From Hydrurus foetidus (Eukaryota): a DNA stretch of 51,784 nt. A program made the translations under genes and the position numbers. Shown here piece by piece: positions 26,201-41,600 of this stretch; positions within the stretch are counted from its first letter, which is position 1; each line of letters starts with the position of its first letter. Below the pieces are notes generated by a model that was given only the letters and a program-made list of their open reading frames with translations, did no database searches and was not told the origin of the DNA. The DNA lies in contig UYFQ01000728.1 in the NCBI GenBank assembly GCA_900617105.1, forward strand, positions 1-51,784. Direction: 5' to 3'.

Positions 26201-29200
26201 ACGAGCGAGTACGATAACAGTCGCTAGGAATCAAATTGCACATTAGAAAGTTCTCAGGGGATTCTCTATATTGTTGCATCACGATAGTCTGTACTATATC
26301 ACACAACATTATTTGACGCGACGCATCATGCCCCTACCGCACATTGCATGGTACAACAGTAATTTACGATGCTGTACTGGCTAGCACTCGCATACACATA
26401 ATCGCACAATACAATACAATACAATACAATACAATACAATACAATACAATACAATACAATACAATACAATACAATACAATACAATACAATACAATACAAT
26501 ACAATACAATACAATACAATACAATACAATACAATACAATATAATACAATACAATATAATACAATACAATACAATATAATATGATACAATACAATACAAT
26601 ACAATACAATACAATACATTACAACACAGCACACCACCACACAGCACAGCACTACACTCCATCACACAACACAACACTACGCAACACCAAACAGCACAAT
26701 ACCACACAACACGACACAACACAACACAACACCATACGGTATTCTACATAGCGATCAAGAAGCACTTCGTCTTATCTGATCACCTCATCGCTATAGATGT
26801 CCACACATTTATTCCAGAAGCTAATTCTGTGTTCCGCGATCTGTACTGACGCCACAGCATTTGAAATCTGTTGACGTGCGTTCATGAGAAGGGTTTCTCG
26901 ATCTCTCTTGGCCCTGTCGCTTTTGTCACGCACCCACTGCTTCCAGGCGTAAAAAGTACTCTGAAGATAAAGATGCAGATAAGGATGTAGAGGCAATGCA
27001 TAAATGTAATTGTTAGACAGACGTGATCAGTGGATATTTTGGATTTGAAGACAAATGCAGACACATGTAGAGATATAAGTGCCTCATTCTGTAACCTTGA
27101 CACCGATGCCACTCATGTTTTGCCTGACGACATCGATAATATACAGGTCCCTCTCCGCTTTCTCTTTCGCATCTGCCACAGATATCTTGATGTACTGATG
27201 TCTATACTCATGGGACAGCTCACGCACCAGCTCCACTGCTGACCCTGCACTACTCCTGTGAAAATCAGTCAGAGAAGGGTAGGACAGTGTATTTCAGTGC
27301 GGTAGAGTGCAGTTCAGTATAGTGTAGGGCACTGTAGGGCAGTGCTTTTCAATGAAGAAGTGTGTGGTGTTACAAGTGAGCTATAAGTGAAGAAATAATG
27401 GCTGTGATCGCGACACAGTGAGATCAAGAATCCATCACTTAGTCAAAGTGCATCACATAACCCACAAGTCACTCACCTTAGGAACCTTTTGCCTCTTGCT
27501 TCCATGACGTCCTTCACTCGGCGGAATCGTCTGCGCAAGTAGCGATTCTCCCTCAATATCCGTTCCCTTTCTTCCGTCTTAGCTGCGATAGCTTCTTCTC
27601 TGTGTGCTTCAGCGTCAACACTGTCACTCCCACTGCCATTCCTCTCATCCGCTGATGAGAGAACATCTTCTGCAAACTCTTCTTCGAGAATCTTCTTCAC
27701 TCGCTTAGCGGTATCCACGGCTCGCCCTGCTAAATTCTTCGCAATCCCTATTGCCACGTCAATAGCGCTTTCCTTCTGAATAGGCACTAGCGTTTTGTCC
27801 GCACTGTCATGAGGGACGAAGGACCTTGCTCTGACTGCTGTGTACTCGATCTCTGCAGCTGATGCTGCCCGTAGCCGGGACCTTACGGCCAAGGCTTCTA
27901 TTGCGCGTAGACGTGCGTCCCTCTTATCCTGCTTAGCGTTATTTTCATCATCACTCTCTGGTTCGATATCTCCTGATAATTTGGCGAGTCGCCCATCTTC
28001 ATCACTTCCACTCGATTCGTCCTCATCTATATCAAATATGAAGTCATCAACGATGTCGCACTCATTCTCACATCTCAGCATCAGCCGCAGCAGCCTCACA
28101 TCCTCTTGCATGTTACCAAGCTGCATTGTGATATTCATCGCCTTTGCTTCTGTTTGCACTGTAAGAAATCCTCCAGGAATCATGGTGGGACACTTGAGAG
28201 TTTCTTCTAATACGCTCAGCTCGGATCGCATTCGTTCTGCATGTTGATCTCTCTCGATTCGAGTTCTGTAGAGCAACTTATCGTACTTCCTTGTTATTCT
28301 CTTCTTCCTTCTGTTAGCGACACGTAGTCTCCATCCCTTCTTGATGCCCTCTATACCATCTGCTGCGATAACTTTGCTGGATTGCTCTAACACAGCTGCA
28401 GAGAGCCACTCCTTGCCCTCCAGGGAATCCAAGTACGACTCTGCTTCATGTCGAGCTCTGTCTACCGCATCAGTCACACTGCTCTCTTTATATCTATCCC
28501 ATAGCCTTCCTTGACGATCAGCTTCAGCACACAATTTCATTTTAATCATGGTGCATAATCGTTCACACATAAATCCAATCTTAGGGGGCACACAGGGCTT
28601 TCTACTTCCCTTATCAGAACAAGAACAAATCCGAAAGCACGCACTCCTGACCTTCAAAACTGGACCGAAAGCATCTGAATAGTTAGCAAATGCCCATTGA
28701 ACATCTCTCTCGCTGTATGGATAGAAAGATGTTTTATACTTCATCTCGACAACTCTCTTCAAATCTTGTTCTTTCCAATATTCCTGTAGTTTGGGCAGAA
28801 GAACGTTCCAGAAATAAGGCATCTGTAACGCAAACCACACATCCACACTTTCATCCGTTGTGGCGTTGGCTTCAAATTCAGAGGGATCAACTATGTTTTT
28901 GTCCAAAGCCTGCAGTTCATGAGAGATAACGTAAATGAAATAATTAGTAGAGATACTATTTCATGATATAAAATAGAGCCGCAGTAAATTAGATGATAAA
29001 AGATAGAAGGGAAGATGAGAATACTATTCTTCAGCATTTTACTATGAACATTTCTCCAACAAAAGGAAATAACAAGTCGTATGATCCAGTCGTATGAGAT
29101 TTAATAGATTAGAGAAGAGTACCTGCTGTAAACAATCCTGAGTGCTAGTTATGATGTCTAAAATCCTGCCCTGCTCGTCATTTTTCACTTTATCTTGAAA

Positions 29201-30756: not shown

Positions 30757-35853
<5,097 letters not shown>

Positions 35854-36106: not shown

Positions 36107-36973
36107 TCAAAACATTTGACCGGTGCGCTCCAGAAAATTTTTCTTCGCTATTCCCCAGGCTATTTTTGCCTCTGGCTCACGATCAGTTACTGAAACCACG
36201 TCATACTCAGTAGTCCCCTTGACGAGGATTTCCCATTTGCCAGGATACACTCTTGTCAGCCACGCACCAAGTCGACTACCTCCAACTGCGATGGGACTCA
36301 GGAACACAGCCTGCACCGCTGACGAGTAAAACTCTTTGGTGACTTTTGTGAGGGCAGGGTAAATGAACCAAGGATAGTAGCCATTTCGTAGTCTGTCCAA
36401 ATTCCCATTAATAATTATCATCGGTGCGCCTCTATCCAGCTTAGGGATATTTATCCATTCATCGACGCTGAATCCAGGATTGATAATTATCATCAATTGA
36501 GGGATGGCCGCAGGTTTATTCTCCATGAGCCCCTCTATGGATGTCATGGTGAAAGGTAAGTCCTCCCCCCATTTCTCGCGGGCTAGAAAGCACTCTTTCT
36601 TGTCAGGAAATAGGACCCACAAATCTTTGCCATACGAGGAGAAAGAATTGATGAATTGCCGCGTAAACTGACGATTTGTGTCCAGAGTCTCTCCTAGACT
36701 AATATCGTTTTTTCTGTTCGCTGGAAACTCTACCTCGATAAGTTTAGATCCCTCGTCAATGCAAAGCTTACAACTATCGACTGATTTCCTCAGAATGGCG
36801 GAGAGGTAATTATTCTGATCACTATTAAATAGAAATCCTGTCTTGCCCTCCAGCGACATGTGTAAGATTGGCTGACGAGTTGAATGCTGAAGAACGCGGT
36901 AACTTCGTCCAAAGCTGGCCATAAGTAGCAGACAGGTAACGCAATTGACTAGAGATAATGAGAGGCGCGCCAT
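36107..36973 (-). CDS. DUF1995-domain protein, probably plastid-targeted (bipartite presequence), intronless
   Basis: Motifs LIEVEFP, VLFPD..E and IIINGNLDRLRNGYYP are typical of DUF1995. The N-terminus MARLSLSLVNCVTCLLLMASFGRS-YRV...LHMS resembles a signal peptide plus transit peptide. ATG at 36973 is preferred to the LTR-derived ATG at 37234. Confidence 0.8.
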   Translation of the reverse strand: MARLSLSLVNCVTCLLLMASFGRSYRVLQHSTRQPILHMSLEGKTGFLFNSDQNNYLSAILRKSVDSCKLCIDEGSKLIEVEFPANRKNDISLGETLDTNRQFTRQFINSFSSYGKDLWVLFPDKKECFLAREKWGEDLPFTMTSIEGLMENKPAAIPQLMIIINPGFSVDEWINIPKLDRGAPMIIINGNLDRLRNGYYPWFIYPALTKVTKEFYSSAVQAVFLSPIAVGGSRLGAWLTRVYPGKWEILVKGTTEYDVVSVTDREPEAKIAWGIAKKNFLERTGQMF

Positions 36974-37111
36974 CCTGTAGACTTCCTCAATTACAATGAA
37001 CCTTTGCTCTTCGAAAGAGCAATATTGTGGATGCACAGTTGCTACTGACCACCTTCGTATGCTGTATGTAGGTTGCAAACTGCAAACTCTGAGAAATAAG
37101 CAAGAACCGTG

Positions 37112-37477
37112 TGTCGGAATAACTGTGTGATAAGTAACCGTATAAGTTATTACGTATGTACATTTAATGACGTTTCGTACGTCGTGTGCCACGTGGAGGT
37201 CGCTACTCCACCGGTCCAAGTTCTTTTTCCACATCCAGGAACATTAAAAATGAAAGTACACCATGTTTGACTGTGCGGGACAGATCGAATTTCTCGACTG
37301 TCTCCATGAACGATGTAAGCTACGTTGCATTGTTAATTACTTTAAACTCCAAACCAAACCCACTTTCGCCTTGAGCCCGGGAAAGTGACCAGAAGCCAGG
37401 TTGAAGTTGCAGAAGGAGAGCGGACCCAGGAAGGATTTAGTTGCCCATTCAGTGGAACTAAAGCGTGGACTCCGACA
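37112..37477 (+). repeat. 5' LTR (366 bp)
   Basis: TGTCGGA...TCCGACA 7-bp terminal inverted repeat; no differences from the 3' LTR found by eye. Confidence 0.97.
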
Positions 37478-37488
37478 TAATTAACAAT
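37478..37488 (+). promoter_or_regulatory. Non-tRNA primer-binding site TAATTAACAAT, complementary to LTR 37329-37339
   Basis: Directly abuts the terminal CA of the LTR, lacks TGG, and is the exact reverse complement of ATTGTTAATTA in the LTR. Confidence 0.75.
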
Positions 37489-37502
37489 TGCACTTTCATC
37501 CT

Positions 37503-38615
37503 ATGAAAGGAAAAGTTGCAGACAAGAAACCTTCTGGCAAGGGCGGCCCTGCCAACGGCGGCAGAGGCAACGCCGGCCGTGGAGGCTTCAAGCCTCCACC
37601 CCGAACAGGAACGGTAGCGGCCATAGGCGCGTTCCTGGATTTGGGGAAGGAAATGAACCATGGTAGCGTAAGCGCATGGATGAGAAAATTTAGAGAGTAT
37701 ACGCGGACCAACTATAAATCAGACATTTGTGACATATTTGGGAACGAAGGCATACCGGGAGAATATCCCGTCCTAGTGGCTCCTGCCGATATAGCGGAGG
37801 ACGCGAACTTCATGCAAATTGCAAGATGGAAGAAAACACTGGACCTCTACGACAAGAAAATGACGGAGCTAGAAACCGACAAGAAGCAGGTCTTCGGCCT
37901 GATGCTAGGTCAGATAAGCGAGACGTCTAAGGCGACTATCCGCGAAACTGAACCGGGCCTGGCCGCGATCACAGCGGAGAACCCGCTGTTATTCATGAGA
38001 GCCATCATACTCACCCACCTGTCCGACCCGAAGCTGGGAGCAGACGAGAACCTACTACGGGTAAGGATGGCCTATGAGACCGTAAGAATGGAGCCCAACG
38101 ATGTCCTTAAGTACTACTACCAGCGCTTCAAAGCCCTGAAGACTGGATACGATGACACCAAACGGGTCCTAGGGATCGAGCCGGTGTATACACCGGCCAT
38201 GACCATACACGAGAATCTTCTCACGGGTATGAAGTTCATGAAGGGACTCAACTCGGGGTACAAACAATTCGTAGAATACTACGAGCATGGGATCAAGGAC
38301 TGGCCAGATTCGCTAGATGAAGCGTACTTAGAGATGGCTAAGGTGACTCCCAGAAAACCGGCCGGAACGGGCCCACCTAATCAATCTAATATCTTTGCAG
38401 TGAAAACAGCTGGAGGAGATAAATCAGTAGGTAGAGAGAAGGGAAAGTCAACTGGGGATGCGGGAAAAGGGAAGGGTGCACGTCCGGGATACGGCACCCG
38501 ACCCGGGATCTGTAATTCATGTAAGGAACCGGGACACTATGCATATGAGTGCACTGCCCAGGAGAGCCAATCGGCTGCATCAGCAGCCAGTGGACACTCG
38601 AAATCGGTAAACTAA
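37503..38615 (+). CDS. gag: Copia Gag with CCHC zinc knuckle
   Basis: ATG 37503; G/K/R-rich N-terminus; capsid-like core (FGLMLGQISETSK...YYQRFK); CNSCKEPGHYAYEC; TAA 38613-38615. Confidence 0.92.
   Translation: MKGKVADKKPSGKGGPANGGRGNAGRGGFKPPPRTGTVAAIGAFLDLGKEMNHGSVSAWMRKFREYTRTNYKSDICDIFGNEGIPGEYPVLVAPADIAEDANFMQIARWKKTLDLYDKKMTELETDKKQVFGLMLGQISETSKATIRETEPGLAAITAENPLLFMRAIILTHLSDPKLGADENLLRVRMAYETVRMEPNDVLKYYYQRFKALKTGYDDTKRVLGIEPVYTPAMTIHENLLTGMKFMKGLNSGYKQFVEYYEHGIKDWPDSLDEAYLEMAKVTPRKPAGTGPPNQSNIFAVKTAGGDKSVGREKGKSTGDAGKGKGARPGYGTRPGICNSCKEPGHYAYECTAQESQSAASAASGHSKSVN
38606..38612 (+). promoter_or_regulatory. Candidate -1 ribosomal frameshift heptamer G_GTA_AAC just before the gag stop
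   Basis: X_XXY_YYZ phase in the gag frame (TCG GTA AAC TAA); a -1 shift enters the pol frame (LNTLHYSS...). Confidence 0.6.
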
Positions 38616-41600
38616 ACACATTACATTATTCCTCACCCACATACGCACCCCCACACACACACACACCCGTACATGCACTTACCCCCACCGGTCCACGTTT
38701 GGCTGACTCCACTAGCGGGGTTGAATCGTGCGACCGTATTGTATTTAGTGCAAACACTTGTAATATATACAATGCAATTAAAACAAAACACATACTGCTT
38801 GATACTTGTGCTGGTGAGTCGGTATTCAACGACTCATCCCTGTTATACAATGTAAAATCTGCCACCACTCCCATGATTGTTAGCGGGGTGAATCCGAAAG
38901 GAAAACCGCTAATAGTCAAGGAGCGTGGCGAATCAGCGTTTGGCAATGTATATTATAGCCCTGACTGTGCTGGTAACATACTGTCTTTCGGTAATGCTGT
39001 ACGTGACTGTACTGATGTTATGTACTTACATGACCATGACTGTTACATAGTACAGGATGTCACTGGTAATTATTTCTACAGATTCTCACGAGATGAATCT
39101 ATGAATATATACCAATGCAACCTTGACACTATGGTGACTAAATGCATGCCACTATTAGTTACAACCGTAGAAGAGAAAAAGAAGAAGTATACAGTTAGAG
39201 AGGTCAGAGACGCTTCGCTAGCTAGAGACTATCAGCGTAGGCTAGGTTACGCTAGCGCAGCACAAACTATCAAGTTGATATCCCAAGGGAATTTGACTAA
39301 CAGTAAAGTGACTGCGCGAGACGTACACCGAGCAGTAGACATATGGGGACCAGACATTGGATCCCTAAAGGGTAAAACTACTAGCCACCAAGCTAAGCTA
39401 GAAGAGAAGTTACCTCTTATAGGCACAGAGTATAAGACAGAACAGATCATGTACATTGATATAATGTTTGTCAACCAAATACCTTACCTAGTATCAGTTG
39501 TACAGCCTATTGAATTCCTGTTTGTTAGCAAGCTAGCCAAGAGAGATCACAAAACACTATGGAATAGTCTAAAGACAGCCATAGCAGGCATGACTAAGTA
39601 TCACTTTAAGATTAAGATGATAAGAGTAGACGGTGAAGGCGCCATAAACACCGAATGGTTCCACAACAAAGTCAGTCTCAGAGGTATCATTTTAGATGTT
39701 ACCGGAGCCGGGGAAGCCGTAGCCGTAGTGGAGCGTAAGATTAGACATATCAAAGAGAGAGTCAGATCCGTTATTAACACGCTGCCATTTGAATTAAGCG
39801 AGAAACTTGAAGTGTGGTTAGTTAAGTATGCAGTCAGTAGAATTGTATTAGCTCCCACACGTAACTCTATAGATCACATCAGCCCACGAGAGAAACTCAG
39901 CGGTAGAAAGATTGATGTAGATAAAGAGATTAAGCACGGTTTTGGTGATTATGTCCAAGTGCACAATGATGTTATTGACAACTCTACCAAACCAAGAACA
40001 GCCGGGGCCATAGCACTTATGAGCTCCGGCAATCTAGAAGGTTCATGGTACTACATGCTGTTAGCAAATGAACAAATTGTTAAACGTACAAAAGCAACCG
40101 TACTACCCATGCCTAACGAAGTTGTGTTACACTTAAACAGTCTGGCAGCGAATAGAAAAACTGCCAATGTTAAACAACCTGTATTCGAGAATAGCCACAC
40201 CGTATTCGATGATGATGATGATGTTGACGATGACCCTGAATACATTGGTGACATTGAGTATGATACCATTGACGAATCTGCTGACGCAGAAGAAACCGAT
40301 GAAATCACTGAAGACAACCAACACGTTGACAATGACACATACCCTGAGCCACAACAATATATGTACGATGAAAACAACCCACCGACATTAGATGAGTATG
40401 TAGATGACACACTATATACGAATGACACCACTCATACTAATGACGAACTATATTACGATAACCACACACATGATGATGCGAATCAATACGAAACACATGA
40501 GCGTTCACCCAGATACGATCAAGCACTAATTGATGATATATTTGGAATAAGTGATGATGAAAATGACTTTGACGATGTAACTGCGCAACCCGAAGTATTC
40601 TCACCACCTTCAGTAATAGAAACAGAATATGATTTACCAGACAGTGTTTCACCTTTGTTGCGTAGAAGTGGTAGAAACCACCAACTAGGTAAATGGAATA
40701 GGAAATATGTTGGTAGCATATTTTATAAAAACACATCCCTATATAAGATGACTGTTAGTGAAGGAAATAATAAGTTAGGGGTGCTAGCTGTTGATTCCAT
40801 TACATCCGAATTAAAACAAATGTGCGATAAGGATGTATGGGAAGGTGTAACTTATGAATCACTTACACCTAAACAAAAACGCACCATCATACCGAGTAGT
40901 ATGTTTCTAAAAGAAAAGTACACGGCTGATGGTATGTTTGAAAAACTGAAATCTAGACTAGTAGCCGGTGGGCACCTACAAGATAGAGATGTTTATAACA
41001 ATGGTGCATCCCCTACTGCTAGCACATCCAGCGTATTTATACTAACTGCGATTGCTGCTAAACAGAACCGTGCTATTGCCACTGTTGATTTCCCTGGTGC
41101 ATTTCTGAATAGCGATATGCCGCTGACCGGTGACCATGTTGTATACATGCGATTAAATAAACAACTGACTGCTGCACTAATACAAATAGACGCAACATAT
41201 AACAAATACATAAATAAGAATGGAACATGTATTGTGAAACTAAAGAAAGCTTTATATGGATGTGTAGAATCTGCTAAGCTATGGTATGACAAACTATCCA
41301 GCGATTTGAATAAACTCAATTATACTGCAAACGAATACGACATCTGCGTATTCAATAGAACCGAAACTGATAACACACAAACCTCATTAGTAATTCATGT
41401 TGACGACATGATTATTACTGCTTCAACCGAATCCTGCGTGGATGAGGTTATAAAGCAGATTGAAACTATATACCCCGGTCTAACCAAACACCGCGGCAAA
41501 GTATTAAATTACATAGGTATGACCTTCGACTTCAATAACGAAGGAGTAGTCAAGATGACGATGGAAGGGTTTGTAAAAGATCTCATTGAGGGGTGCACGG

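Follow-up and report, generated by a model that had tools for sequence, protein, structure and literature searches.

The question raised by a retrotransposon in Hydrurus foetidus is how its reverse transcription is started, for no site that would pair with the 3' end of a tRNA follows its 5' long terminal repeat (LTR). The DNA analysed, called the window below, is the whole of contig UYFQ01000728.1 (GenBank assembly GCA_900617105.1; 51,784 nucleotides), and the element is an intact Ty1/copia retrotransposon with both its gag and its pol frame open. It had been predicted from the bare sequence that this element is primed by its own RNA, in the manner of Tf1 of Schizosaccharomyces pombe. We consider Tf1-like self-priming by far the most probable reading of the locus. 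The self-complement from which it is predicted is real and well supported by comparative evidence, and the mechanism is of a known kind, in a lineage for which no earlier description was found.

The segment TAATTAACAAT at 37478-37488 directly abuts the 5' LTR without a spacer. As the original prediction had it, this segment is the exact reverse complement of 37329-37339 within the LTR (all coordinates hold), no TGG is present at the site, and the 3' end of the 11-mer paired there would lie flush with the LTR boundary. The 3-bp extension of the pairing past a bulge also proved real (duplex energy of -11.4 against -7.6 kcal/mol), but it lies upstream of the predicted transcription start. Among 20,000 shuffles of the LTR with its dinucleotides preserved, a flush match of at least 11 bases arose once; with offsets of 0-4 permitted, such a match arose in 14 of 20,000. 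In the predicted RNA fold, pairs 2-11 of the duplex form with a probability of 0.82-1.0 if the RNA starts at 37320-37329, of 0.08-0.38 if it starts at 37290, and of 0 if it starts with the LTR; the pairing would therefore depend on the 11-mer lying near the 5' end of the RNA. Rfam gave no match in 37000-37700, and ARAGORN found no tRNA within the window.

Relatives were fetched by alignment of pol, which yielded 125 loci, 77 from metagenomes and 48 on contigs from genome bins, with 38-59% identity to the window element in the reverse transcriptase (RT). The latter contigs (L078-L125) are eukaryotic retrotransposon contigs inside bacterial genome bins, presumably as contamination. A scan of metagenomes by gag alignment gave 95 pattern matches, none of which was confirmed, and no relatives were found in the viral collection. 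Many of the relatives are collapsed or circularly permuted elements that hold one whole LTR. The curated set comprises 61 junctions, namely 60 loci and the window; the remaining 65 of the 125 loci were too short, had no LTR-to-gag junction, had too little LTR (L091, L093), had a 3' junction only, or were distant outgroups. Grouping at 80% RNase H identity gave 47 groups, or 46 once a duplicate was merged, with L033 and L090 counted singly.

A scan for self-complements after CA ends revealed the same geometry in the relatives as in the window, and it was also found in L069, L011 and L027, where both LTR copies are present and the LTR boundary is fixed independently. In 44 of the 47 representatives, a stretch of 9-25 bases flush with the LTR end matches the element's own LTR exactly, against 12 of 2,162 swaps, 4 of which concern a duplicate pair or two families with a common site. 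The matched sequences themselves vary: the first 9-mers after the LTR are of 45 different sequences among the 47 representatives, and in 44 of 46 families these nine bases pair perfectly with the own LTR. Over the 46 families, with the arm of L056 taken from its other LTR copy, 412 of 414 positions are Watson-Crick pairs, one is a G-U pair and one is a mismatch. Among the nearest relatives, changes on both sides of the duplex relative to the window affect 1 of 11 positions in L039, 2 of 11 in L001 and 4 of 11 in L005. In L006 and L007 the LTRs start with TGTGT and end in TTTTCA rather than ACA, and a self-complement of 14-15 bases is still kept.

We also scanned the loci blindly and without de-duplication: every ACA end within the 950 bases that follow RNase H was tried, and the best match was kept. 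This match reached at least 9 bases in 46 of the 60 loci, compared with 72 of 3,482 swaps, and at least 14 bases in 32 of the 60, compared with none of 3,482 swaps. Of the 14 misses, 7 are junctions of a 3' LTR with host DNA, which pair over 3-5 bases and where no site is expected; likewise, the host DNA adjoining the 3' LTR of the window element self-pairs over 3 nt only. The other misses are two imperfect copies (L015, L035), four loci that by inspection do not have an LTR end followed by gag, and one conventional copia element (L105). The covariation of primer site and LTR that self-priming predicts is thus present in 44 of 46 families and in the blind scan, with swaps and 3' junctions as controls. 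Taken together, the LTR shuffles and the blind scan of relatives rule out a chance origin of the self-complement.

Priming by the 3' end of a full-length tRNA is excluded for these elements, as TGG occurs in the first six bases after the LTR in 0 of 61 junctions. A host half-tRNA might prime instead, as in Drosophila copia, Osser, Bryco or Bianca, the match to the LTR then being incidental. The reverse complement of the window site does resemble a GUU (asparagine) anticodon loop with two of three stem pairs, but in a test of the sequence pattern alone, a loop with all testable stem pairs fitted only 3 of 46 families, and the paired change in L001 breaks the anticodon-loop pattern. The 45 different 9-mers would call for dozens of tRNAs, and a tRNA primer leaves the match of each site to its own element's LTR unexplained. 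We therefore regard half-tRNA priming as extremely improbable.

A further idea is that the pairing is a structural helix of the 5' leader, serving translation control, packaging or dimerisation, with another primer used for reverse transcription. In the fungal GalEa elements, a conserved hairpin stands where a primer site would be, and no mechanism is known for it (PMC5445492), and the helices that flank the primer duplex of Tf1 were not detected in the window by a crude test; both points would suit a leader helix. Against it, in 44 of 46 families the helix begins right at the base that follows the LTR, which is where the minus strand must start, and the occurrence of a single G-U pair in 414 positions agrees better with templated copying than with a structural role. 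Furthermore, no other primer site was seen between the LTR and the start of gag 25 bases on. Such a leader helix is unlikely in our view.

If the arm within the LTR is the beginning of the RNA, the pairing should stop at a transcription start signal, and an initiator-like motif is indeed found at its edge. Of 43 families, 36 have CA at the 5' edge of the paired arm (background 16%) and 32 have TCA there (background 5%). Counted from the A at this edge, the arm is 9-11 bases long in 13 families and 15 bases long in 19. In L047, L051, L071, L066 and L032 the arms are 17-25 bases long, beyond the 11 and 15 classes; in three of them CA is absent from the edge or the arm runs past it. The initiator consensus of oomycetes is YCAYTYY (PMC3599244), and the diatom motif TCAHW puts +1 one base past the A (PMC4686930). 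A transcription start at 37329 or 37330 is predicted for the window element. The initiator-like context claimed for the first A of its 11-mer holds as regards the CA, and the G-C-A found here is weaker than the T-C-A of most relatives. With covariation and an initiator-like motif at the pairing edge, the case for Tf1-style priming without tRNA is strengthened.

Self-priming might also proceed by another geometry: the RNA might begin a few bases further upstream, or, instead of RNase H cutting an intramolecular fold, the primer might be released as a fragment of a second RNA copy or by a host nuclease. The 3 bp by which the window pairing runs further upstream would agree with this, as would the extension in L039 by a C and two G-U pairs, the five arms of 17-25 nt and the lack of detected flanking helices. 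The position of the arm edge at CA in most families and the clustering of the lengths counted from that A argue against it, and we judge these variants quite improbable.

On the preferred reading, priming by the folded 5' end of the element's own RNA, the process would run as follows. Transcription would start at 37329 or one base on, and the RNA's first 11 bases would fold back onto the primer site at 37478-37488. A predicted cut past base 11, probably made by the element's own RNase H by analogy with Tf1, would free a 3' end from which minus-strand DNA would start at the edge of the LTR. In retroelements generally, the attached primer is copied during plus-strand synthesis. Here, this copying would regenerate the primer site as the exact complement of the primer, which would explain why strict Watson-Crick pairing is kept, with almost no G-U pairs, while the letters drift.

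Several points weigh against this reading. The 11-bp duplex of the window element, rich in A and U, is weak (-7.6 kcal/mol) and is mostly lost with a start about 40 bases upstream, its initiator context is G-C-A and not T-C-A, and in 7 of 43 families the edge of the arm bears no CA. Flanking helices of the Tf1 type were not detected in the window by the crude duplex test, in which 87 and 14 of 100 shuffles were equally good; among the relatives, just 1 of 39 and 6 of 39 gave a positive result. Pairing is imperfect in two families (L015, L026) and in one copy (L035). The families share ancestry, so that their counts are not independent and binomial significance is overstated; the 61 curated junctions were selected post hoc, after matches had been seen, and only the scan of ACA ends is blind. 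Finally, position 3 of the arm is C (T>C at 37331) in a common sister family, to which a second element in the window belongs. In four sequencing runs this variant makes up roughly half of the depth or more, and no matching change at 37486 is listed in these runs; a C-A mismatch in the sister family is possible, as contigs of four runs aligned to the LTR of the second element and to 37300-37530 did not reveal the family's own primer site. The U5 of this family differs from that of the window element. A further variant primer site, which shares 10 bases and then ends in G-A, appears at loose contig ends that are not linked to its LTR.

To place the elements, we built a quick tree of RT and RNase H, from which L033, L076 and L081 were left out and which holds no named CoDi, GalEa or TAR sequences. 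The 58 rows placed from the curated set form one clade in it (support 100, branch of 2.03 changes per column), to which neither the seven rows of conventional copia elements nor five rows of greater distance belong; four of the seven conventional copia rows have the site GGTTATG directly after an LTR-like end. The window belongs to a subclade of 10 rows (support 99) in which the arms have 9-14 bases; in a subclade of 21 rows (support 100) they have 14-15 bases, save for two imperfect copies. Self-priming probably arose here independently of the plant TAR elements. More broadly, we think it reasonably probable that a deep and widespread Ty1/copia branch in heterokont algae, and probably in other protists, dropped tRNA priming and gained self-priming independently of both Tf1/sushi and plant TAR, without a pretzel scaffold of flanking helices and with primer lengths typical of each subclade (about 11 and about 15) set by the distance from the initiator; the window copy, being intact, would then lend itself to a first direct test of self-priming in a copia element.

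The features of the element and its surroundings are collected in Table 1. Its assignment to Ty1/copia rests on the TG..CA LTRs, identical over 366 bp, with the CCGTG duplication, and on an integrase that lies ahead of a copia-type RT (RVT_2) and RNase H. In the pol product, D-D-E motifs lie at about residues 304, 361 and 395, the RT (RVT_2) spans residues 773-1015, and RNase H motifs follow it; the domain names given to these motifs follow in part common usage and in part PMC5445492. The open gag and pol frames and the identical LTRs indicate a recent insertion.

Table 1. Positions in the window of the retrotransposon, the related second element and the neighbouring host gene
Feature	Position	Strand	Remarks
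Left target-site duplication CCGTG	37107..37111	.	identical to 43489-43493
5' LTR, 366 bp, TG..CA, 6-bp terminal inverted repeat	37112..37477	+	identical to 3' LTR
Predicted self-primer 11-mer, predicted first RNA bases	37329..37339	+	exact reverse complement of 37478-37488; begins at A of G-C-A
Putative primer binding site, flush with LTR end, without TGG	37478..37488	+	same geometry in relatives
gag open reading frame (ORF), 370 aa, C-terminal CCHC zinc knuckle	37503..38615	+	PF00098 match just below curated cut-off
pol ORF, 1306 aa stop to stop, -1 frame	38549..42469	+	protease, integrase, RT, RNase H in copia order; RVT_2 E 3e-22
Short polypurine tract AGGGG, 2 bases 5' of 3' LTR	43116..43120	+	similar motif before LTR in relatives
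3' LTR, 366 bp	43123..43488	+	second 11-mer copy at 43340-43350
Right target-site duplication CCGTG	43489..43493	.	identical to 37107-37111
Second related element, 3' LTR; 5' end beyond window	49837..50203	-	its 11-mer 49987-49977 differs at position 3
Second element RT/RNase H, three pieces (frame changes)	50857..51783	-	74-83% identical to window element
Host DUF1995 gene	36107-36973	-	starts 139 bases from 5' LTR

The end of gag (38606-38615) reads G-GTA-AAC followed by a stop, within the overlap with pol in the -1 frame, and this is likely a -1 frameshift site; no folded structure was found in the 78 bases 3' of it. Most close gag relatives have KSVN or a similar C-terminus. The N-terminus of the integrase (39233-39400, residues 229-285) contains no cysteines and no HHCC zinc finger, although the D-D-E triad of the integrase is invariant across 57 relatives. 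The long 3' untranslated region (42477-42790) contains short repeats with C-rich runs, which are also present in the second element. That family member (49837-51784, minus strand) lies 6 kb off in the opposite orientation, and the element family is abundant and diverse in the sequencing runs compared. Because the DUF1995 gene starts so close to the 5' LTR and on the opposite strand, the insertion lies in its likely promoter. The DUF1995 protein is 50-51% identical to an Ochromonadaceae and a Mallomonas protein, the only matches with organism names, and on the strength of these two names the host is likely a chrysophyte. Elsewhere in the window, 353-1561 is a region of repetitive low-complexity ORFs, and two simple tandem repeats occupy 26296-26755 and 32600-32800.

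Self-primed reverse transcription has been shown experimentally for the gypsy-type Tf1 and is predicted in a few other groups. If the present prediction is true of this large copia clade, cleavage of an RNA-RNA duplex to provide the primer is also within the reach of a copia RT/RNase H, likely as an independent invention, and the absence of tRNA sites from these abundant algal elements is accounted for. A self-complement after the LTR would serve as a simple annotation rule that makes start sites predictable to the base. The window copy, with its intact frames and identical LTRs, would be a ready substrate for testing self-priming.

In Tf1, the RNA's first 11 bases are complementary to a primer site directly 3' of the LTR, and RNase H cuts between bases 11 and 12 (PMC7175516); two helices that flank the primer duplex and form a "pretzel" are required (PMC10085805). 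The window element agrees with Tf1/Tf2 and the Tf1/sushi chromoviruses in the length and register of its primer site. It differs from them in that Tf1/sushi elements belong to Ty3/gypsy, whereas the window element has the copia domain order and an RVT_2 RT, and in that the Tf1 primer has 11 bases, whereas the lengths in the window clade range from 9 to 15 or more. The flanking helices, which the crude test did not detect in the window element, may be a further difference. Membership of Tf1/sushi is ruled out by the copia order and by the lack of a chromodomain match in Pfam.

Among copia elements, self-priming has been predicted for the plant TAR lineage, and for Tcn1 as well, and 12% of surveyed plant elements, from both superfamilies, were predicted to self-prime (PMC6317226). 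The original prediction had self-priming proposed for only a minority of plant copia elements; the proposal exists, but in that source it extends to the whole TAR lineage. The TAR elements (Houba, Osr-1) thus resemble the window clade in being copia elements with predicted self-priming, and their hosts are plants. An ancestral self-priming appears in PMC3601003 as speculation only, and no report of self-priming for algal copia was found in the literature covered, with subscription journals and Repbase and GyDB entries outside its scope. The CoDi elements of diatoms (PMC2806351, PMC2774666), compared by description only, are likewise divergent copia elements of heterokont algae, with TG/CA ends and similar length. 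No statement on priming was found in the text searched of these two accounts, with no mention of tRNA in the first and none of PBS or primer in the second, though their supplements could list primer sites, and no named CoDi protein was among the matches to the window element. The fungal GalEa elements with their Conserved Hairpin Site (PMC5445492) are also copia elements that have no tRNA site and carry an A/T-rich motif right after the LTR. As described there, the hairpin partner in GalEa lies 12-41 bases downstream, is conserved in sequence and has no complement in the LTR, whereas in the window clade the partner lies inside the LTR and the letters vary freely.
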